Below, piece after piece: positions 1,460-9,947 of a stretch of DNA of 35,917 bases. This DNA comes from an uncultured Gammaproteobacteria bacterium. GTDB lineage: Bacteria; Patescibacteriota; Microgenomatia; 0-14-0-10-38-17. Under the pieces are notes generated by a model. It had not been told where the DNA came from. It made no database searches and saw nothing but the letters and a program-made list of their open reading frames with translations. Each line of letters opens with the position of its first letter. Within the stretch, counting starts at the first letter, position 1. The stretch covers positions 72,676 to 108,592 of the forward strand of contig CAYGEH010000001.1 of assembly GCA_964348895.1 (NCBI GenBank). The letters are read 5' to 3'. The position numbers were made by a program, and so were the translations under genes.

Positions 1460-2329
1460 TTAAAGCACTCTACTGCTGGCTCTGTCTTGTTTTTTGATTT
1501 CAGGTAGAAAGTAAACACTATAACCAAAATCATCTTCGCCAACTGGCTTTGCTTGACCCCTAACAACCGCTTCCATTGGTAAACAAAAAAAACAACCCGA
1601 CTCTCCCTTGGGACAAGCAAAGCGGTCAAGTTGATAAGAAAGGCGAATTTCCTTGCCAATTTTAAGCAGCTTCTTGAGAGTTTGTTTCCGAGATGGTAGC
1701 TCAATTTCTTGAGGGTAATTTTGTCGATCTAAATACCAAAATGAAGCTTTCTTTACTGGTCTTTCCTGGCATTTTTCCGCAATTAAGCGGTAAATTGGTA
1801 GTTGCAGAGAATCTTCCTCTTCGCTTCCTTGTCCAGTTTTAAAATCAATAATTCCAACAGCGTTTTCTTCAGGAAAATATTCGAGCCAATCAATTTTGCC
1901 GCAAAGAATTAAATTATCTTTTTCTGACAACCAAAAGTGGGGTAAATCTAGGTTAATTTTAACCGCCAAGTTTACTAAAGGACCAGGGCTATTTGTTAAA
2001 CGAGCAATCATTTCTCTTCCTCTTTGCTTGTAGCGATTTTCTGTTTCTCTGTTGTCAAATCCACCCCTGGGGCCAGAAAATTTCTCCCAAATTCGATCAA
2101 ATCGAGCCATTAAGGGCAAAGCCAATCGCTCGTCTTTGGGCAAAACAGAAATCTCTTCAAGCACCTCGTGGAGTACTTGTCCCAAAGTAAGTGGAGCCGA
2201 AACCAGCTTTATTTTCCGACCAGTTTTAGGATCACGATAAATGTGTTTTAAAAAATAGGCTCGAGAACATTTTTGAAAATCAACAATTGAGGTGTGAGAC
2301 AACCAAGCGGCACTATAAGAATCAGCCAT
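1460..2329 (-). CDS. PD-(D/E)XK RecB/AddB/Cas4-like nuclease with putative 4-Cys Fe-S staple
   Basis: WLSHTSIVDFQKC...LGQVLHEVLE, GKIDWL...IIDFKTG, LQLPIY (QxxxY); one N-terminal Cys plus C-terminal CPKGESGCFFC. Confidence 0.88.
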   Translation of the reverse strand: MADSYSAAWLSHTSIVDFQKCSRAYFLKHIYRDPKTGRKIKLVSAPLTLGQVLHEVLEEISVLPKDERLALPLMARFDRIWEKFSGPRGGFDNRETENRYKQRGREMIARLTNSPGPLVNLAVKINLDLPHFWLSEKDNLILCGKIDWLEYFPEENAVGIIDFKTGQGSEEEDSLQLPIYRLIAEKCQERPVKKASFWYLDRQNYPQEIELPSRKQTLKKLLKIGKEIRLSYQLDRFACPKGESGCFFCLPMEAVVRGQAKPVGEDDFGYSVYFLPEIKKQDRASSRVL

Positions 2330-2336
2330 ATTTGTA

Positions 2337-2345
2337 ATTATAACA
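2337..2345 (-). promoter_or_regulatory. Extended -10 promoter (TGtTATAAT), 7 nt before the nuclease ATG
   Basis: Minus strand reads ctgtTATAATtacaaatATG. Confidence 0.7.
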
Positions 2346-2360
2346 GCAGATCTTTTTCTA

Positions 2361-2376
2361 TTTTTTTTTTTTTTTT
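2361..2376. repeat. T16 homopolymer
   Basis: 16 consecutive T at 2361-2376, immediately upstream of the nuclease promoter. Confidence 0.9.
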
Positions 2377-2444
2377 GCGAAAGAGCCTTTTGGTTTTTGC
2401 CAAAAATGTCCGTGATTTTTTAAAACAAAAGGTAAGGCTTTCTT

Positions 2445-2762
2445 TTAAGAACACTCTCCCTCAAAGTAATAAGCTACAGCCTCGTTTCGACAGGCAAAAC
2501 AACTATTACTATAAGTTTGATTATTGTTTCCGCAAACTGGCTGATAAATTTCAAAACAAACTTCCGCCCCTCTTTGTTCTTCATAACAAAAGACTGCTGT
2601 CTCGGTTGATGGGGTTTCGTCAATAAAAGAAGACTCATTATCCTCTCTGTTTGTCTCCCTTAGTGTTTCTTTTCTATTTAGGTTGCTAAAATTTAAACCC
2701 AAAATTACCAAAAGAAATAAAATCGCCAATAAAATTAATACTAATCGACTATTTTTGGGCAT
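2445..2762 (-). CDS. Membrane-anchored Kazal-type serine protease inhibitor domain protein
   Basis: N-terminal hydrophobic helix, then C-X9-C-X7-C-X10-C-X2-C-X12-C containing CFEIYQPVCGNNNQTYSNSC (Kazal PVCG..TYxNxC signature). Confidence 0.85.
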   Translation of the reverse strand: MPKNSRLVLILLAILFLLVILGLNFSNLNRKETLRETNREDNESSFIDETPSTETAVFCYEEQRGAEVCFEIYQPVCGNNNQTYSNSCFACRNEAVAYYFEGECS

Positions 2763-3420
2763 TATTTACCTCTTTTTTATAGCAAAAATAAGAATAAATT
2801 GTTAAAAAAATCGCTGACAAAAGCACTGGGACGATTACTAGCCAAAAACCAAGATCTGGTAAAAAAAACCCTCCCAGAGCGATTAAACCTGAAATCTTAA
2901 ACAATAATCCACCTAAGCTATGGGTTTTTTGCCAAACTAAATCTGAGCTAATTGTCCAAGGAGTTTTGACACCAATAAACCAATTTCGCTTGGTCTTTTC
3001 CAATAAAGATCCCGTTAACCAAAGTAAAATTGCAAAAGGTAAAACCATAAAATAAATCAGATTAAATCGCCAGCCCAAATTCCAAGCTAAAACCAAAAGA
3101 TGAAGATAAAGCAGAAACAGCAGTATCAAAACAATAAAGCCATCAAAAGGAGAGCGAAATTTTTTAATATTTTCCCTTAGAGGATCAATTCGGGGGATTA
3201 ACCAAAACAAACCAAGCATTATCAGGGCTATTATTGGAGACAAAAATAAACCCCAAAAGCGAGAAAGATAGCTATTGGGTTGACCTAAGTAATCCCAACC
3301 GGAAACCATTTTTTCTGGCATCCGAGAATAAAAAAGCCCCCCCAACAAGAACCCTAAAAACACCAGTAAAACCATTAACCAATTGACCCATTCTTTACTG
3401 TTCTTTCTTTTTCTTGTCAT
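2749..3420 (-). CDS. SdpI/YhfL-family membrane immunity protein (with DUF1648-like N-terminus)
   Basis: About 6 TM helices; RIDPLREN, KRNWFIGVKTPWTISSDLVWQKTHSLGG motif typical of SdpI. Confidence 0.85.
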   Translation of the reverse strand: MTRKRKNSKEWVNWLMVLLVFLGFLLGGLFYSRMPEKMVSGWDYLGQPNSYLSRFWGLFLSPIIALIMLGLFWLIPRIDPLRENIKKFRSPFDGFIVLILLFLLYLHLLVLAWNLGWRFNLIYFMVLPFAILLWLTGSLLEKTKRNWFIGVKTPWTISSDLVWQKTHSLGGLLFKISGLIALGGFFLPDLGFWLVIVPVLLSAIFLTIYSYFCYKKEVNNAQK

Positions 3421-3469
3421 TTCCTTAAATTAAAACAAAAAAAAGACTTGAAGGCAATTCTTTTTTTTA

Positions 3470-3478
3470 TGATATAAT
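3470..3478 (+). promoter_or_regulatory. Extended -10 promoter (TGaTATAAT) for the 3511 gene
   Basis: TGATATAAT at 3470-3478; TTGAAG at 3448-3453 (19-nt spacer); AGGA just before the ATG. Confidence 0.6.
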
Positions 3479-3510
3479 AACTAACTGTGGTTTTTAAAAA
3501 CCTATAGGAT

Positions 3511-4383
3511 ATGAATAATAAAGAGGTCTTATTATTTCCAGAGCAACAAAAATATTTTACTCAACGTGGTGAAGCCTTTGTCATCGGTGAAGACATCACA
3601 AAAAAATACCCAGATCAAATAGGGTTTTTAACCAATCAAGGCTTATGGAAAAACTGCCTAAGAAAACATCGAGGCGGTCTTGGTTTGGCCTTGCTCTTAG
3701 ATGCTGATAAACAAACTGGCTTTGTTTTTAACCCCAACAACCAACAAATAGAAAATATATTTTCTATTCAACAAGAATCATTACCCGAAACAATCGCTGG
3801 AGCCATTGTTGTTTGCCCCCGTTCCCCCAACAGCCTAGAGTCTATTTCCGCTAACCTAGAAAGCATCCTCCTTTTTCTTTCAGAAGATGCGCCAGTTTTT
3901 GCTTTTGAAGATTTCCCTGAAAAGAACAATATTGACAAATCGCAAATAACCCAAGAGGCTCAAGCAAGAAAAGAGGCTCTTTTAGACTTAGGATTAGCAG
4001 AAGCAAAAATCTTAACCAGGCCAACCCTACAAAAAGGCGAGAAAATAAACTCCTTTTTAGTTTGGCGAAGTCGAATGCCCAAAAACTGGCGACCAAGAAA
4101 ACCAATTAACCTTCTTGATGAGGGTCCGCTTTGGCGAAGAAGCTTAGTGGAAAACTCTTTGATAGGGGCGACAAGACAATACGAACGAGCAGGGCTTACC
4201 GTCTTGAATGATGACGAAATTAGAGAAGCCCTAAGAAAAACTACCTTTCCTCTTAATACTATTGGGCAGGCAAAAATGGCTTTTGGCTTTCAAGTTGAGG
4301 CGCGTTGTGGTTGTTGTTGGAGCATTGATCTAAAGGGGGTTCAGACAAGAACTTATCAGTGCGAACGAGATTGTCAAAGTTAA
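3511..4383 (+). CDS. Hypothetical protein, 290 aa, with C-terminal Cys cluster (RCGCCW...QCERDC)
   Basis: Long ORF with its own promoter, filling the gap between neighbouring genes; no family recognised with confidence. Confidence 0.75.
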   Translation: MNNKEVLLFPEQQKYFTQRGEAFVIGEDITKKYPDQIGFLTNQGLWKNCLRKHRGGLGLALLLDADKQTGFVFNPNNQQIENIFSIQQESLPETIAGAIVVCPRSPNSLESISANLESILLFLSEDAPVFAFEDFPEKNNIDKSQITQEAQARKEALLDLGLAEAKILTRPTLQKGEKINSFLVWRSRMPKNWRPRKPINLLDEGPLWRRSLVENSLIGATRQYERAGLTVLNDDEIREALRKTTFPLNTIGQAKMAFGFQVEARCGCCWSIDLKGVQTRTYQCERDCQS

Positions 4384-5549
4384 CCGATAACAACTGCTAT
4401 TGGTGTTAATTTAATTTCCATTTTAGCTAGTTGTTCTTGATTTCTAATCACTTTTTCAATATCTTTGTAAGCCCAAGGAGATTCTTCGGCAATATTTCCC
4501 TTTTTCACTTTTCCCAAAACAACCCCCCTATTTTCAATATCGGCTAAAACCATTTGGGGAGAATATTTTTTCTTGGCTTCGTTTCTTCCCATTGACCGAC
4601 CAGCACCATGGGCACAAGAAGAAAAGCTATCTTTATTCCCCAAACCTGTTCCAAGATAAGATGGGGTTCCTAAGCTTCCTGGAACAATCACCGCTTCTCC
4701 TTTTCCAGCTCGAATTGCTCCTTTTCGATGAACCCAAACCTGTTTACCAAAGTGGATTTCGCAGGCGGCATAGTTATGGTGAACATTAATTGTTTCGCTA
4801 AAATTAACAGAGCCAAAGATTTCTTCTAGAACCCTTTTGGCCTTAGCTAAAATCACCTGTCGGTTTTTCTGAGCAAACTCCATCGCCATTTCCATCGCTT
4901 CAATATAGGCCTCCGCCTCTGGTGTTTTGCTGTCAAAATAGGCTAAATCATAGTCTGGTAAGTCAAGGCCCTTGTGATAGCATTGTTTTTTTGCCATTTG
5001 ATGAAACAAGCTGGCGACAGCGTAACCAAAATGCCGAGAGCCAGTGTGAACCATCAAAGCTGCTTGACTCTGTTCGTCTTTTAATAAATCAACAAAATGG
5101 TTTCCTCCACCCAAACTCCCAAGCGATCTTTGGGCTCGATCAACTTCTCTCTCAAGCTCTGGCGGTAATAACTCTTTCCTTAAAAAAAGAGTTCCGGGCT
5201 GGGGTTGATCATAAACTCCAAATCCAATTGGAATTTCTCGCCTTATCTGGTTAACAAATCTTTCTAGATCGTTCATCTTAATCTTCTCAATTGGAATGTC
5301 GGTTCCGACATAAGCCATACCACAACCAATATCTACCCCAACCGCGTTGGGACAAATCGCTCCCTCCAGGGCCAGAACACCGCCAATGGGCATACCATAA
5401 CCAAGATGAGCATCTGGCATTAGGGCGACATGGTGATAGGCTGAAGGAAGATTAGCCATATTTTTGGCTTGCCTCAAACAGGTCTCCTCTAGTTCTTTTG
5501 GATCAGCAAAAACAAGCAGGGGAACTTTTTGATCTTTAATTATGATCAT
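4380..5549 (-). CDS. rtcB: RNA 3'-phosphate/2',3'-cyclic-phosphate ligase RtcB
   Basis: MPDAHLGYGMPIGGV, VGVDIGCGM, SLGGGNHF, HTGSR, HHNY, WVHRKGA, PGSLG, SCAHGAGR (guanylylated His motif). Confidence 0.96.
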   Translation of the reverse strand: MIIIKDQKVPLLVFADPKELEETCLRQAKNMANLPSAYHHVALMPDAHLGYGMPIGGVLALEGAICPNAVGVDIGCGMAYVGTDIPIEKIKMNDLERFVNQIRREIPIGFGVYDQPQPGTLFLRKELLPPELEREVDRAQRSLGSLGGGNHFVDLLKDEQSQAALMVHTGSRHFGYAVASLFHQMAKKQCYHKGLDLPDYDLAYFDSKTPEAEAYIEAMEMAMEFAQKNRQVILAKAKRVLEEIFGSVNFSETINVHHNYAACEIHFGKQVWVHRKGAIRAGKGEAVIVPGSLGTPSYLGTGLGNKDSFSSCAHGAGRSMGRNEAKKKYSPQMVLADIENRGVVLGKVKKGNIAEESPWAYKDIEKVIRNQEQLAKMEIKLTPIAVVIG

Positions 5550-5559
5550 AAGAAAGGCT

Positions 5560-6357
5560 TCACTTCTGTTCGTTATGCCAAAAGGTAATTATTTTCTCTC
5601 TGCGACTATCCAAGGATTCTTGGTTAATAATCCCCGCTCCGCTAATACAACCGCCTTCGCAATAAAGAATATCCAGTAATTTTATTTCTGGTTGACTAGA
5701 AAATTCCTGAAGTGTTTTCTCGACTAATTCTGGTCCAGAAATAACACTATATTCGGAATCAGTAAGCGTTTTGGTTAGTCCAGACGATTGGGCCAATCCT
5801 CCGGAAATCGGATAGAGCCTTGTGTGCGAGGCAGCAAGGTCAAAAGAATAATCTTGGTCGCTTTTTTGAGGAAAAATATTTTTAATTCTAAATATTTCCG
5901 CTATTTCTTGATAAGTTAAAACCACTATCTCTAGCTCCGCGTGGTCCTCTTTGGCTTCTAATTTCTTGGCAACACACGGACCAATATAGACTTTTCGATG
6001 ATTTGGATATTTTTCGGCGACTATTTTTGCCGTAGCGATCATTGGTGAATCAACTAAAGCTAGAAATGGAACAAGATCGGGGTATTTATTTTTAACTAAA
6101 CGAACAATCGTAGGACAAGGAGCAGTGATATATCTTTGACCAGGACTAAGTTTTAATAAATCAAGCAGTTGGCGATTGGTCTCCACCGCTCCGACCCCAA
6201 CCTCAACCACATGGCCAAAACCCAATCGCCTTAACATTCCAACAAACTCAGGATAAGAAAAATCAACCAGAAAAGATGGGGCAATCATCGCCACCATTTC
6301 CTCTTTTCTCTCCACAAATCCAAGAATTTCTTCTATTTCCGCAGTGTAATTGCTCAT
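5560..6357 (-). CDS. Stand-alone [FeFe]-hydrogenase H-cluster-domain protein (ultraminimal, 265 aa)
   Basis: IAPSF; P1 ITAPC81PT; DSPM; P2 GPC128VAK131KLE134; P3 DILYC233EGGC237ISGAG. No accessory ferredoxin domains. Confidence 0.88.
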   Translation of the reverse strand: MSNYTAEIEEILGFVERKEEMVAMIAPSFLVDFSYPEFVGMLRRLGFGHVVEVGVGAVETNRQLLDLLKLSPGQRYITAPCPTIVRLVKNKYPDLVPFLALVDSPMIATAKIVAEKYPNHRKVYIGPCVAKKLEAKEDHAELEIVVLTYQEIAEIFRIKNIFPQKSDQDYSFDLAASHTRLYPISGGLAQSSGLTKTLTDSEYSVISGPELVEKTLQEFSSQPEIKLLDILYCEGGCISGAGIINQESLDSRREKIITFWHNEQK

Positions 6358-6365
6358 AAATAAAG

Positions 6366-6881
6366 TCAGAGTCTGTTAATCTTTTTTAAAAAGAAATAGG
6401 CCAATAAACCACCAACTAAAGCGGTAAAAAGCTGCGACCAACCCATCATCAAGACTATTCTTTGGGCAACTTCTCTTTTACTAAATAAGCCAACCACTGT
6501 CATGCTGGAACTGAATAAGAAGAAGAACTTTAAAGTGCCGGCCACCACTACTCCTAGCCAATAATTGTCCTTCAAATAATTAAAAGCTATTACTAATATA
6601 GTGTTTCCCACCATGATAAAAGGAATCATTGGGGCTAAAACTGGAGGCAAAAGGCCAGTGGATAACGCGATTAGACTTGGGATCAAGCCAACTAAAATCC
6701 CCGCCTGAACACCCAAAAGAATAGTGGAAACAAATAGGGTAGCGTTAACAAGGGGACCAGTAATCGCCTGATGTCCAAATAAGGGCGCCAGGGTAGCAAC
6801 CCCCACTAAAATTACAAGCTGGGTTAGAAAAAGAATTCTTTCTTTGTCTAGTGTTAAAATTTTTGTTTTATTCATAAACAT
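6366..6881 (-). CDS. ECF-transporter S-component-like integral membrane protein (about 171 aa, about 6 TM)
   Basis: Size, hydrophobic pattern and the motif HQAITGPLVNATLF...GLIPSLIAL...GLLPP...PFIMVGN match my recollection of S-component families. Start re-called to MFMNK (6881, or 6875). Confidence 0.65.
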   Translation of the reverse strand: MFMNKTKILTLDKERILFLTQLVILVGVATLAPLFGHQAITGPLVNATLFVSTILLGVQAGILVGLIPSLIALSTGLLPPVLAPMIPFIMVGNTILVIAFNYLKDNYWLGVVVAGTLKFFFLFSSSMTVVGLFSKREVAQRIVLMMGWSQLFTALVGGLLAYFFLKKINRL

Positions 6882-6959
6882 TCTCGTTCTTGTTTTCTTG
6901 TTGCTATTTTCGCGTAAAATCAGCTGGCGCACTGTTTAAATAATTCAATCCGTGTTCTT

Positions 6960-6968
6960 ATTATGACA
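6960..6968 (-). promoter_or_regulatory. Probable extended -10 promoter (TGtCATAAT) for the S-component/hydrogenase/rtcB operon
   Basis: Minus strand reads gtgtCATAATaagaacacgg; implies a 5' leader of about 70-80 nt. Confidence 0.45.
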
Positions 6969-7091
6969 CAAAACTTCTATCTCTTAATTGGTTAGACTCA
7001 TAGATTTAGAAGTTTTTCACCTTGTAAATATGCACTCAATGGCTTCAAGTGTTCTATCCCCTTATATGATCTGTAATAAAAATAATTTTCA

Positions 7092-7520
7092 TTATTTTTT
7101 ATATAAAACAAAATGCGGCAAGAGATTTAAGTCAATATAGTTAAACATCCAATAATTAGCCCTTTTAGCCGTTTGTGGTAATTGATATTTTTTTAAATTA
7201 TTTTTCGATACAAAAGGATAAAATCTAATTTCTTGATGGCTCCCAGATTTATCTTCCCACTTAAAATTAGCTATCATTGGAGGAACGAGAAAACCTGATT
7301 TCAACACTTTGTCCATTATCTGCCAACCTGCTCCAAAGATTTTCTTTTTTGGCTTTGAAAGATTGGTTTTTACTTGTGCCCGAAAAGAGCATCCTGTACA
7401 TTGGACATCATAGAGTGGGTAGTTGGGAGGTAGAGCCATTAGTTTCTTGCTACAATTTGGACAAGGGACAAGTTCAATAACTTCTAGTTCTCCTGTATTT
7501 CCAGCTTGTTTATTAGACAT
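7092..7520 (-). CDS. DpnI (Dam-replacing)-like nuclease, catalytic domain only (142 aa)
   Basis: GE..CPNC-x14-D-x2-CxxC-x4-QxK; later GAGWQIM and LPQTAKRANY..YIDLNLLP, colinear with the recalled DpnI motifs CPNC..PVADFYCxxC..ELKS, DGAYxTM and LAPTARRAGW..IDLSQVP. Confidence 0.75.
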   Translation of the reverse strand: MSNKQAGNTGELEVIELVPCPNCSKKLMALPPNYPLYDVQCTGCSFRAQVKTNLSKPKKKIFGAGWQIMDKVLKSGFLVPPMIANFKWEDKSGSHQEIRFYPFVSKNNLKKYQLPQTAKRANYWMFNYIDLNLLPHFVLYKK

Positions 7521-7559
7521 ATTTTTATTTTTTCTTTGTTACAGGTGTGGCTTTTTCTT

Positions 7560-7805
7560 TTAGTTATTTTCAGTGATCCTTGCCAGCCAAACACCACCAA
7601 CAATTCTAAAAAAGAAGTTAACTAAATATCAAAACAGACGCTATTAGTTTTATTGTGGTCTTTGCGACTGTTGTAATAAAATTTTCCTTTTGGGTGTTTA
7701 ATTTTTTCTATTAACTCTAGTTTAATTTTCTATCAATCCCTCATCATAAAATCGACAAAGCTTATTTTCTTCGGTAATCTTTTGTCCACAAAACTTACAT
7801 AACAT
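7560..7805 (-). pseudogene. Decayed zinc-ribbon/membrane protein gene
   Basis: ATG at 7805 (3 nt after the RDD gene stop) gives MLCKFCGQKITEENKLCRFYDEGLIEN* (stop 7722-7724), paralogous to MYCKHCGEKIPKDSKFCRHCG with the fourth Cys lost. Hydrophobic fragments (TIKLIASVLIF; LVNFFFRIVGGVWL) follow in other frames. Confidence 0.65.
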
Positions 7806-7808
7806 ACA

Positions 7809-8423
7809 TCATTGTCCCTCACTAAGACTGTAAAGATAAGCCCATACGATAACTGCAATTGCCGTTAATATATAAGCCAAAACTAGCCTTCTTTCTTCTT
7901 TAACCACTATTGTCCCTGTTTTTGTATCATGCCACGCTTGCCTTTTGTCATTCTTGTTCATATTCCAATATCCGACACCAAAGAAAAGCAGTGAAAGAGG
8001 TTGTAACAATGAACGCCCCAAAGCTGACCCAAAACCCAACCTTTCTTTGTTCTTGGTAAGAATTCTCAAACCATATAAATGTTTACCAGGGGTAGTTGAC
8101 CAGATGCTTAGAACTAAAGTATTATATATAACAAAAGATAGATAGCTCGAAACCATATTAGACAAATCCCAAACACCCTCACCAAATATTGGACCTAAAA
8201 CAAAACCTATTACAAATATATAGCCTACTCCTACCACCAAATAATCAATCAAATACGCACCAAGCCTAATCCAGAAACCAGCATAGTCTAATTTTGTGGA
8301 GCTTTTAGTCATCTCCTCTGCTATAGATAATTCCTTGTGACGGTTGCCAACAATCTTATTTCCACAATGCCTACAAAACTTGCTATCTTTGGGTATTTTT
8401 TCCCCACAATGTTTGCAATACAT
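7809..8423 (-). CDS. Zinc-ribbon + RDD-family membrane protein
   Basis: N-terminal CKHC-x10-CRHC; YAGFWIRLGAYLIDY, TPGKHLYGLRI, RQAWHDTKTGTIVV (RDD signature). Confidence 0.9.
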   Translation of the reverse strand: MYCKHCGEKIPKDSKFCRHCGNKIVGNRHKELSIAEEMTKSSTKLDYAGFWIRLGAYLIDYLVVGVGYIFVIGFVLGPIFGEGVWDLSNMVSSYLSFVIYNTLVLSIWSTTPGKHLYGLRILTKNKERLGFGSALGRSLLQPLSLLFFGVGYWNMNKNDKRQAWHDTKTGTIVVKEERRLVLAYILTAIAVIVWAYLYSLSEGQ

Positions 8424-8460
8424 GTATTTCGCTTCTTCTTACTTAAAAGGTGTTAATTTT

Positions 8461-9075
8461 TTATAAATCATAGTCGGCGCTTTCTATTTTCCAAGTCCAC
8501 CAAGATTGGCCTCGTGGGTAAAAATTTATAGGAACCTGAAAGCTAAACGCCCCGTTTGCCTCGGCACCACTCCAAATGGTTACAATACGAGTATCAAAAT
8601 GTCTTTTCAGAGCCTCGTCATAATAAAAGTCTAGTCTCACACTTACATTCCGGGCCGCCCCTGAATAAGCATTTTTTAAGGTTCCCACAAAATAGCTTTC
8701 AAAATAATCGTCATAAATGATGTCATAATCAGTTATATTTAGATGGCTTATGGGGAAGGTGGCGGATTCTGTTTTAATATTTGTTGTTTGGCTCTTTTCG
8801 CTTGACAGTGAAGCTAGCACTGTTATTCCAATAAACCCTAGTATAGTCCCCACGCAGGCAATAAACACAAACCTTTCAATAGGTTTTTTTGAAAACATTT
8901 CCTTTTTCTTTGGTCTGAATATTACATCATCAATCTTTTCGATCTCTTCGTGAAGCGAAGCAGCTATGGTTTTAACTTTTTTTAAATTTTCGGAGGTTAA
9001 CTCAAATCCACATTCCTGACAAAATTTACTTCCTTTTAAGTTCTCGAACAAGCATTGGGGGCATTTAATCTTCAT
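8461..9075 (-). CDS. Zinc-ribbon + single TM + FxLYD-like extracellular beta-sandwich protein
   Basis: CPQC-x10-CQEC; TM helix at about aa 70-90; VGTLKNAYSGAARNVSVRLDFYYD resembles the FxLYD domain. Confidence 0.7.
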   Translation of the reverse strand: MKIKCPQCLFENLKGSKFCQECGFELTSENLKKVKTIAASLHEEIEKIDDVIFRPKKKEMFSKKPIERFVFIACVGTILGFIGITVLASLSSEKSQTTNIKTESATFPISHLNITDYDIIYDDYFESYFVGTLKNAYSGAARNVSVRLDFYYDEALKRHFDTRIVTIWSGAEANGAFSFQVPINFYPRGQSWWTWKIESADYDL

Positions 9076-9084
9076 ATTAAATTC

Positions 9085-9873
9085 CTAACCAGATTTTATC
9101 ATAAAGCTTTCTCTCCAAAACAGCATTAAGTTTTTAATTCTGTTGGTAATTAAGGGGTGGCTAATCAAAAACTCGCTGAATTTTACAGAACTCATTTCTG
9201 CGGTCTTAATTTGGGCTACATAGCCTTTTATGTTTAGTTGCTCATATAACTTCTTGCCAACAGCCAATTTGATTAAAGCCGAAAGGGCACTATCGATATT
9301 CTTCGTAAGTATTAATCCACACCTGTCACAGGAATATTCTGTTTTTCTACTCCAAAGTCCAAAAATTAGTCCACTTAAAACATTATTATTTCCTATTGGT
9401 ATGAACAAAGTAGACAGTTTTGTGTGTCCGGCTTTATAGTGTCCTAATTCATGTCCTATTACAAAACTTAGTTCCTTCTGACTAAGTTGTTCTACAAGAG
9501 CTGAATTTAAAACTACCGTGCAACTTGTTATCCCAAGAGTAAATGCATTAAGATAGGGGTCTTGAATGATATACAAAGAAGCCCTTGGAAGCTCTAATTT
9601 CGTTGCTTGATCTCTAAATAATTCATAAATGTCTGAATATTGACCTTTGTGCACCCTAATGGCGTTCCCTAAAAATTGTGCTTGCTGTAACCGCACATAA
9701 ATTACAGCCCCAAAGAGGACAAACAGAAAGATGTAAATATCGAATATATAAAGAAAAAGGCTTATTCCAATAAGAGTAGCAAGGCTTAAAAGAAAGGCAA
9801 GATGTTCGCGGGGAACACGAAACATCCACGCCTCTACTTTGTTTATCTCATTTTCATAAGTTTGATTTTTCAT
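9085..9873 (-). CDS. M48-family (HtpX/Ste24-like) membrane zinc metallopeptidase
   Basis: Two N-terminal TM helices; YIIQDPYLNAF, FVIGHELGH (HExxH), WSRKTEYSCDR, SHPLITNRI. An alternative start at Met17 (9825) is possible. Confidence 0.9.
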   Translation of the reverse strand: MKNQTYENEINKVEAWMFRVPREHLAFLLSLATLIGISLFLYIFDIYIFLFVLFGAVIYVRLQQAQFLGNAIRVHKGQYSDIYELFRDQATKLELPRASLYIIQDPYLNAFTLGITSCTVVLNSALVEQLSQKELSFVIGHELGHYKAGHTKLSTLFIPIGNNNVLSGLIFGLWSRKTEYSCDRCGLILTKNIDSALSALIKLAVGKKLYEQLNIKGYVAQIKTAEMSSVKFSEFLISHPLITNRIKNLMLFWRESFMIKSG

Positions 9874-9876
9874 TTG

Positions 9877-9947
9877 TTGCCCAGCTAGGATTCGAACCTA
9901 GATTCTTCGGTTCAGAGCCGAATGTCCTACCATTAGACGACCGGGCA
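9877..9947 (-). tRNA. tRNA-Gln, anticodon CUG; CCA not encoded
   Basis: TGCCCGG/CTGGGCA acceptor stem (U1-A72), D-arm GTCTAATGGTAGGAC, anticodon arm TTCGG-ctCTGaa-CCGAA, T-arm CTAGG-TTCGAAT-CCTAG; discriminator A followed by CAA. Confidence 0.97.

Follow-up and report, generated by a model that had tools for sequence, protein, structure and literature searches.

A single-domain member of the DpnI family from a Patescibacteria genome as a putative methyl-adenine-dependent nuclease of 142 residues

R.DpnI of Streptococcus pneumoniae, a type IIM/IIE restriction endonuclease that depends on N6-methyladenine (m6A) in its site, Gm6ATC (structures 4ESJ and 4KYW), joins a catalytic domain of Pfam family PF06044 (residues 1 to 182) to a C-terminal winged helix (residues 183 to 254) (PMC4117772). 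The two CxxC motifs of DpnI bind zinc in the crystal, and its isolated catalytic domain cuts Dam-methylated and not unmethylated DNA, so that specificity for both sequence and methylation is present in this domain (PMC3424567). Here, we describe a gene for a 142-amino-acid (142-aa) protein that resembles this catalytic domain alone. The gene lies in a 35,917-nucleotide stretch of contig CAYGEH010000001.1 (positions 72,676 to 108,592; assembly GCA_964348895.1; lineage Patescibacteriota, Microgenomatia, 0-14-0-10-38-17), which we call the window and in which positions are counted below.

The window protein has the fold of R.DpnI, with a template modelling score over the query (TMq) of 0.78, and the two have in common the Cys4 ribbon around the catalytic Asp and, by alignment, the positions of the D and xK of the active site, of the Leu/Arg/aromatic cleft, and of the guanine-reading Arg/Lys. 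Both are solitary, with no cognate methylase. They differ in size, as the window protein has 142 rather than 254 residues and does not contain the winged helix, the type IIE effector domain, and in detail: Gln stands in place of E64, G137 and G140 are replaced, the recognition loop is longer by one residue, and the window protein belongs to a separate deep clade.

The founder of PF06044 is Drg (NmeBII), the Neisseria endonuclease encoded by the "dam-replacing gene", with the specificity GmeATC (PMC4269198). Drg, like the window gene a member of this Pfam family, is a horizontally acquired accessory gene in a genome without Dam activity; it replaces dam at one fixed locus, whereas the window gene lies in a variable segment next to a tRNA-Gln gene and has no dam remnant beside it. 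In MspJI-type enzymes, reading is done by a separate domain at the N-terminus (SRA-like in MspJI) and the cut lies some distance away, while the window protein has one domain and would read and cut within its site as DpnI does; it is related to the MspJI/Mrr type at the superfamily level only. That type has the same D...QxK active site on a PD-(D/E)XK core, is solitary and modification-dependent, and requires the Gln (PMC2938202). Winged-helix fusions are also found among type IV enzymes, namely HhiV4I and its relatives (PMC11037411). In these enzymes and in the fusions to a HARE helix-turn-helix (HARE-HTH) domain within the DpnI family itself (P0128 and P0253, see below), m6A-sensing or helix-turn-helix readers are modules added to a nuclease core; no such module is present in the window protein.

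Results

A single-domain protein with the DpnI fold

An earlier note, made by a model from the letters of the window alone, had proposed a stand-alone DpnI-like catalytic domain with a D...QxK active site. The open reading frame (ORF) that it named is real, with the length given there, and runs on the minus strand, which the note had left out; its 142 codons begin with an ATG at 7520. It is the only long ORF in 7092-7520, the overlapping plus-strand ORFs being short and unsupported. The residues singled out (E11, C20-P-N-C23, D38, C41-T-G-C44, Q49-V-K51, and the C-terminal TAKRANYWMFNYIDLNLLP) are all at the positions stated. The features of the gene are as follows.

7092 to 7520, minus strand: nuclease ORF, 142 aa, single-domain DpnI-family (PF06044) zinc-ribbon PD-(D/E)XK protein (from the ORF, Pfam, the structure model, Foldseek, and substitution rates).
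7488 to 7490, minus strand: codon of E11, the Glu of the N-terminal helix aligned with DpnI E25 (invariant in 121/121 close homologues; helix 3-17 in the structure model).
7389 to 7463, minus strand: Cys4 zinc-ribbon insert with C20, C23, C41, and C44, enclosing the catalytic D38 (7407-7409) (from alignment).
7368 to 7376, minus strand: Q49-V-K51, the (E/Q)xK half of the active site, aligned with DpnI E64-L-K66 (from alignment).
7137 to 7190, minus strand: recognition loop K111-Y128 (KYQLPQTAKRANYWMFNY), corresponding to the DpnI major-groove loop 123-144 with the m6A methyl pocket (from alignment and conservation).
7603 to 7632, minus strand: candidate promoter TTGATA-18-TAGAAT, about 80 nt upstream of the ATG (from a consensus scan).

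Promoter-like sites are no commoner in this region than in shuffled sequence, so the last feature is a candidate only. A 1.1-kb stretch containing the gene was identical, with zero differences, in four independent Logan assemblies of public runs, and the gene is therefore not an assembly artefact. It is present once in the genome, as judged by a six-frame search (PF06044, 34.5 bits, above the cut-off). Neither a signal peptide nor a membrane segment is visible in the protein when the sequence is judged by eye.

The protein matches PF06044 (DpnI, "Dam-replacing family") with 35 bits against a curated cut-off of 26.7, its residues 14-136 covering positions 28-152 of the 183 in the profile, and no further Pfam domain was found in it. 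No NCBIfam model fits the protein, and only weak matches were obtained with PADLOC (DpnI-type mREase_II, E 0.002) and with PHROGs (an unannotated phrog). A search of the Protein Data Bank (PDB) with the single sequence gave no match; a profile of 20 homologues found DpnI (4esj/4kyw, E 1.3e-3) and no other credible match.

For structure prediction with AlphaFold2 (AF2), a first run on 20 near-identical sequences gave a predicted local distance difference test score (pLDDT) of 44.5 and was discarded. The model built from a diverse 39-sequence alignment reached a pLDDT of 96.6 and a predicted template modelling score (pTM) of 0.89. Foldseek matched this model in the PDB to DNA-bound DpnI (4kyw_A) with an E-value of 1.1e-7, a probability of 1.00, a TMq of 0.78, and 25% identity. 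The next matches other than DpnI, Hjc resolvases and SwaI, had a TMq of at most 0.42 and E above 0.04. Like the DpnI crystal structures, the model shows a Cys4 zinc ribbon inserted into a PD-(D/E)XK fold, with zinc binding predicted from the four invariant cysteines. The earlier note would have fallen had DpnI not been matched in structure; the match is strong, and a compact stand-alone domain of this kind is backed by sequence, profile, and fold alike. On the best explanation of these data, the 142-aa protein would be a functional single-domain member of the DpnI family.

The active site has Gln in place of a DpnI metal ligand

We derived the residue correspondences from the profile alignment read against the paper on the DpnI-DNA structure (PMC4117772); PDB chain numbers equal DpnI numbers plus 3. 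Conservation was counted over 121 close homologues, all of 138-156 aa. The four ribbon cysteines match the two CxxC motifs of DpnI and are the sole invariant columns of a diverse alignment (A2). Residues D38, Q49, and K51, invariant in the 121 sequences, align with DpnI D53, E64, and K66, which bind two metal ions and the attacking water (PMC4117772); Q49 and K51 are at least 90% conserved in A2. From its position, E11 is a candidate for an additional metal or water ligand.

The Gln at position 49 is near-invariant across the diverse alignment and is the rule in both clades of the family described below, including the 181-aa protein P0234, which matches PF06044 with 180 bits. MspJI cuts with a QxK site and needs the Gln of this site, Q355, to do so, as the Q355A mutant is dead (PMC2938202). 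Because Gln is near-invariant in the family and required in MspJI, the change from Glu need not signal a defect, and the comparison argues for a variant catalytic site and not a broken one.

The DNA-reading residues of DpnI are largely kept

In DpnI, the methyl groups sit in a cleft formed by L129, R135, and W138, of which W138 is the main methyl contact, with G137 and G140 packed against it; R135 reads the proximal guanine and R126 the distal one, S17 contacts the minor groove, N48 contacts N2 of the proximal guanine, and the main chain of D78 contacts N4 of cytosine (PMC4117772). The counterparts of L129 and R135 in the window protein, L114 and R120, are invariant in the close homologues, as is G63, at the position of D78. 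K111, in place of R126, is kept in 115/121, and N3, which corresponds to S17 by register, in 119/121. N33, the counterpart of N48, is Asn in 76/121 and otherwise Gly, Ser, or Asp. The counterpart of W138 is W124 according to HMMER and Y123 according to MAFFT. Y123, M125, and F126 are invariant, while W124 is found in 105/121 and replaced by Lys, Glu, or Met in the other 16; we lean toward Y123 as the equivalent of W138. Around the cleft, G137 has become N122 and G140 has become M125 or F126. The alignment thus suggests that the window protein retains most of the means by which the DpnI catalytic domain reads DNA, and that the rim of the methyl cleft has been remodelled.

Since these methyl-pocket and guanine-contact residues are largely kept, Gm6ATC or a close relative of it is the default expectation for the target. 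The earlier note had considered a new specificity possible; the same residues make this less likely than the note implied.

The host genome lacks a Dam-type methylase

The genome (710 kb in three contigs, 38% G+C, 96.8% complete) contains no PF02086 (Dam-type) gene. No methyltransferase gene lies near the nuclease gene within window positions 232-20451, and over this span the remark of the earlier note to that effect holds. It had also called GATC common: there are 104 sites in the window and 2061 in the genome, with an observed/expected ratio of 0.96 and hence no avoidance. Because of this ratio, an enzyme that cut unmethylated GATC would be lethal here. A solitary sequence-specific nuclease without a protective methylase is viable only if its host lacks the target, which favours modification dependence.

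The sole clear N6/N4 methylase of the genome is a 615-aa protein with a DPPF motif (PF01555, 176 bits). Its gene directly follows an 861-aa helicase-nuclease ORF with a DEAH-like FSDEAHH motif and a C-terminal PD...EVK, at C1:320893-325328, outside the window; judged by eye, the pair looks like a type III res-mod system.

A PF02086 gene occurs in 1/6 other carriers of the nuclease (G008), in a sample of seven genomes that is too small for statistics. In this carrier, the Dam-family methylase domain, in a 618-aa frame (49716-50504), lies 2.8 kb from the DpnI-like gene (L006, G008:C4:46468-46890), in which the residues corresponding to L114, R120, and Y123 are all replaced and the recognition loop is rewritten (RKRFTTIKKSGRELWMFNY). 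The rewritten loop may represent a specificity switch. Loss of the pocket beside a Dam-family methylase fits a methyl-dependent enzyme and serves as a check of internal consistency.

Some palindromes other than GATC are strongly under-represented in the genome (observed/expected 0.42 for TGCA, 0.45 for ACGT, and 0.54 for CGCG), while CTAG (1.11), like GATC, is not. The depletion of TGCA, ACGT, and CGCG may reflect restriction pressure on these sites, either now or in the past.

The family is uniformly short and under purifying selection

A word-indexed search found 1629 relatives. The best 120 of them have lengths of 138-156 aa (mode 143) and share 70-82% identity with the window protein, and the homologues with a named source belong to Patescibacteria assemblies. 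An exhaustive search gave 179 clusters at 50% identity, and most representatives with a near-full-length match have 137-167 aa. Compared with 12 homologous genes, the proportion of differing synonymous sites (pS) was 0.69-0.93, at which synonymous sites are saturated, and that of nonsynonymous sites (pN) 0.14-0.32, giving a ratio of nonsynonymous to synonymous rates (dN/dS) of roughly 0.05-0.18. The gene is old and under strong purifying selection.

The ORF corresponds to about residues 15-155 of DpnI, so that it has no counterpart of the winged helix, of some 27 residues at the C-terminal end of the catalytic domain, or of some 14 at the N-terminal end. The earlier note was thus right that the winged helix is absent and approximately right in placing the end of the ORF where the winged helix starts, as it ends about 27 catalytic-domain residues before that point. 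A truncated pseudogene with full-length orthologues in close relatives, which the note had set against its own proposal, is at odds with what we found: the family is uniformly short and under purifying selection, and close relatives have either no such gene or the same short form.

In a maximum-likelihood tree of the catalytic region, whose midpoint root makes the direction of change tentative, two deep clades each had a support of 100/100. Clade A, which includes the window protein, consists almost wholly of stand-alone proteins; nested in it is P0128, a C-terminal HARE-HTH fusion 51% identical to the window protein. In clade B, DpnI stands beside P0234 and is nested among stand-alone proteins (133-167 aa) and three longer ones (254-330 aa), of which only P0253 matches HARE-HTH, just under the Pfam cut-off. 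Because DpnI and the fusions nest among short forms, the one-domain form is the commonest state in both clades, and readers seem to have been added repeatedly. A pair nested in clade A, P0212 (211 aa) and P0242 (234 aa), has lost the D...QxK site (N...RFE/RFI); P0212 has a C-terminal FtsK-gamma winged-helix domain, and P0242 has no Pfam match. Their sequences suggest that they are probably non-catalytic DNA-binding descendants of the nuclease.

One homologous locus (L003, G074:C32:15455-15880) has an in-frame TGA after codon 120, and similarity continues past it. This TGA is either a fresh nonsense mutation or a sign that the genome reads TGA as sense.

The gene is an accessory gene in a variable segment

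The conserved form is present in six of 401 evenly sampled genomes of the phylum (about 1.5%), each from a different family. Of four congeners, one carries it (a 153-aa form on a 1.6-kb contig), as do none of three genomes from other genera of the same family. The nuclease gene is thus accessory and patchily distributed, and on these counts we rejected the idea, prompted by its high conservation, that it is a housekeeping gene.

Its surroundings in the window are as follows.

1460 to 2329, minus strand: conserved border of the variable segment, a 289-aa PDDEXK_1 (PF12705) nuclease gene, syntenic in congener G403 with 71% identity.
2330 to 9875, no strand: variable segment of about 7.5 kb, from the tRNA-Gln gene to the conserved PD-(D/E)XK gene, with unrelated accessory genes and the nuclease gene.
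7722 to 7805, minus strand: remnant (27 codons, MLCKFCGQKITEENKLCRFYDEGLIEN*) of the gene for a third zinc-ribbon membrane-protein paralogue, immediately upstream of the nuclease gene.
9876 to 9947, minus strand: tRNA-Gln gene (CTG), edge of the variable segment (ARAGORN).

In the congener G403, gltX and tRNA-Gln are followed by 2.9 kb of unrelated genes and then by homologues of window positions 2329 to 235. Because synteny with G403 breaks after tRNA-Gln and resumes at 2329, we take the interval between them as a variable segment. Other relatives have none of its genes at this place, except for one short match to the RDD gene, in a zinc-ribbon motif. In the window, the minus-strand run after gltX and tRNA-Gln contains an M48 peptidase, two zinc-ribbon membrane proteins, the 27-codon remnant, and then the nuclease gene, which is followed by an S-component-like membrane protein, a minimal [FeFe]-hydrogenase, and RtcB. 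The remnant is 41% identical (E 9e-8) to the N-terminus of the adjacent RDD protein, and the rest of its gene is missing; insertion of the nuclease gene may have deleted it.

The nuclease gene has no conserved neighbour across its six other contexts, and a functional link to the nearby RtcB or hydrogenase genes was rejected for the same reason. Some of these contexts are defence-rich (Eco57I-type IIG enzymes, GmrSD-HNH with an EcoRI-type methylase, NERD, DUF2726, and a SocA_Panacea toxin-antitoxin gene); the remaining ones are housekeeping regions. We also rejected a mobile cassette with conserved ends, as the DNA resembles that of 13 homologous loci only within the borders of the ORF (7081-7527). 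The variable segment has no integrase, no copies of the 3' tail of tRNA-Gln (the last 18-35 nt with up to about 20% mismatches), and no meaningful repeats or common intergenic repeat family. A phage or plasmid origin was rejected as well: there were no relatives in IMG/VR or among GenBank phages, and plasmids gave one weak partial match, from Azospirillum. Adjacency to a tRNA gene was dismissed as a trait of the family, since 5 of 12 loci, with 2-12 kb examined at each, have a tRNA gene nearby, which by a rough estimate is about what chance would give.

At locus L022, the nuclease gene (6001-6432) starts 33 bp past a tRNA-Ser gene (5879-5968).

Discussion

We propose that the 142-aa protein is a single-domain, methyl-adenine-dependent restriction enzyme of type IIM or type IV-like character, probably directed at Gm6ATC, and that it constitutes a one-gene system. 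Owing to the conserved recognition residues and the methylation context of the host, a one-domain enzyme for Gm6ATC or a close site is the most economical reading of the data, and we give it a probability of roughly 60%.

By analogy with DpnI, a monomer would wrap one full recognition site. The N-terminal helix (3-17), with N3, would contact the minor groove, while the beta-sheet and the long loop 108-128 would enter the major groove, where the two guanines would be recognized by R120 and K111. When a G-m6A-T-C-like site is fully methylated, its two adjacent N6-methyl groups would be held in a hydrophobic cleft made up of L114, R120, and an aromatic residue (Y123 or W124). D38, Q49, K51, and probably E11 would bind Mg2+, with one strand cut per binding event. 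In a host without a Dam-type methylase, the GATC sites of the genome would be unmethylated and safe, and incoming DNA from Dam+ phage or plasmid sources would be cut, with no need for a winged-helix effector.

Several observations weigh against this proposal. The isolated catalytic domain of DpnI is poorly expressed (PMC3424567), and the winged helix aids its DNA binding (PMC4117772). Identity to DpnI is 20-25%, a long branch with full support lies between clade A and the clade of DpnI, and a metal ligand of DpnI, E64, is a Gln here. In the recognition region, the aligners disagree on the counterpart of W138, and both the replacement of G137 and G140 and the additional loop residue depart from DpnI. 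Restriction enzymes are rarely as conserved as this protein, with its 70-82% identity between distant lineages, which leaves some room for the same chemistry to serve a purpose other than defence. A search for relatives in IMG/VR and GenBank phages found none, and a search of public runs for RNA evidence found the stretch in DNA metagenome runs only.

The changes in the recognition region could mean that the protein is a stand-alone modification-dependent nuclease whose target is not Gm6ATC, and that a remodelled pocket accepts m6A in another context or another hydrophobic base modification. The replaced glycines, the longer loop, and the deep split of clade A all fit this, as do the variation at N33 (Asn, Gly, or Ser), the loss of W124 in 16/121 homologues, and the very different loops of L006, L007, P0134, and P0135, which indicate that the recognition loop can evolve. 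However, the guanine and methyl readers (the counterparts of R135, of R126 as Lys, and of L129) are invariant or nearly so in the sub-type of the window protein, and a loop that stays identical in 121 homologues points to a single, unchanging, and widespread target, for example the Dam site, so that we consider a different target unlikely, with a real if small chance of being correct. An inert or catalytically weak protein, which would recognize methylated sites and serve as a regulator or site blocker because of the change from Glu to Gln, has a precedent in P0212 (the FtsK-gamma fusion) and P0242, probably non-catalytic descendants within the clade. We nevertheless find it quite improbable, because E11 and the three D...QxK residues are invariant in the close homologues and because Gln is the normal residue of both clades, P0234 included, and is needed in MspJI. 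That the gene is a recently truncated copy of a two-domain DpnI gene is effectively refuted: it is shorter than DpnI at both ends, but so are its relatives (138-156 aa in 121/121 close homologues, 137-167 aa in most near-full-length cluster representatives), the sole carrier among the congeners is also short (153 aa), selection is strongly purifying, and no winged-helix remnant follows the stop codon, past which there is a 160-bp AT-rich spacer and then an unrelated gene.

Other explanations concern the role of the protein rather than its chemistry. As a methyl-DNA nuclease for nucleotide salvage, it would degrade Dam-methylated DNA from the host organism or the environment and spare the unmethylated genome of the symbiont. 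Patescibacteria have reduced nucleotide synthesis and take up DNA, the conservation of the gene is unusually strong and ancient for defence (to judge from dN/dS and synonymous saturation), and half of the examined contexts are housekeeping neighbourhoods. On the other hand, its sparse carriage in the phylum and among congeners fits an accessory trait better than a metabolic need, none of the seven contexts links it to a competence or salvage gene, and the protein has no visible export signal or membrane segment; we regard a salvage role as improbable. A housekeeping nuclease that is specific for DNA structure, like Hjc or RecU, acting as a Holliday-junction resolvase or in repair, would suit a small protein whose E...D...QxK spacing presumably resembles that of Hjc and whose next Foldseek matches are Hjc structures. 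Yet these matches are weak (TMq 0.37-0.39, E above 0.04) beside that to DpnI, conservation extends to the zinc ribbon and to the recognition loop of DpnI, and about 98% of the genomes in the phylum have no such gene, unlike a core repair function, all of which makes this very improbable.

The single-domain methyl-adenine-dependent enzyme that we favour would be a variant of an enzyme that is already well understood, and is moderately surprising as a concept. Public databases already annotate such proteins as "DpnI domain-containing protein", and a literature search found no paper on the stand-alone DpnI clade. If the protein is active, a single natural domain of 142 residues, about half as large as DpnI, would both read and cut a methylated site, and the winged-helix effector would be dispensable in nature. 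The protein would then also offer a compact starting point for DNA tools that respond to methylation and a clean setting in which to study sensing of N6-methyladenine by a PD-(D/E)XK core.

A broader view, which is quite unlikely, is that the one-domain form is the basic and predominant state of the family, onto which readers (DpnI_C, HARE-HTH, FtsK-gamma) were grafted repeatedly, and that its exceptional conservation among ultra-small symbionts may point to a role beyond phage defence, in telling Dam-methylated DNA of the host or of foreign origin from the symbiont's unmethylated genome, for example in the processing of imported DNA. Were this true, no smaller natural restriction enzyme that depends on modification would be known, and the protein would be an episymbiont-specific discriminator of self and non-self DNA. 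For the enzyme as we propose it, activity would mean that the tiny genomes of Patescibacteria have a widespread one-gene device against foreign DNA that is suited to their size.

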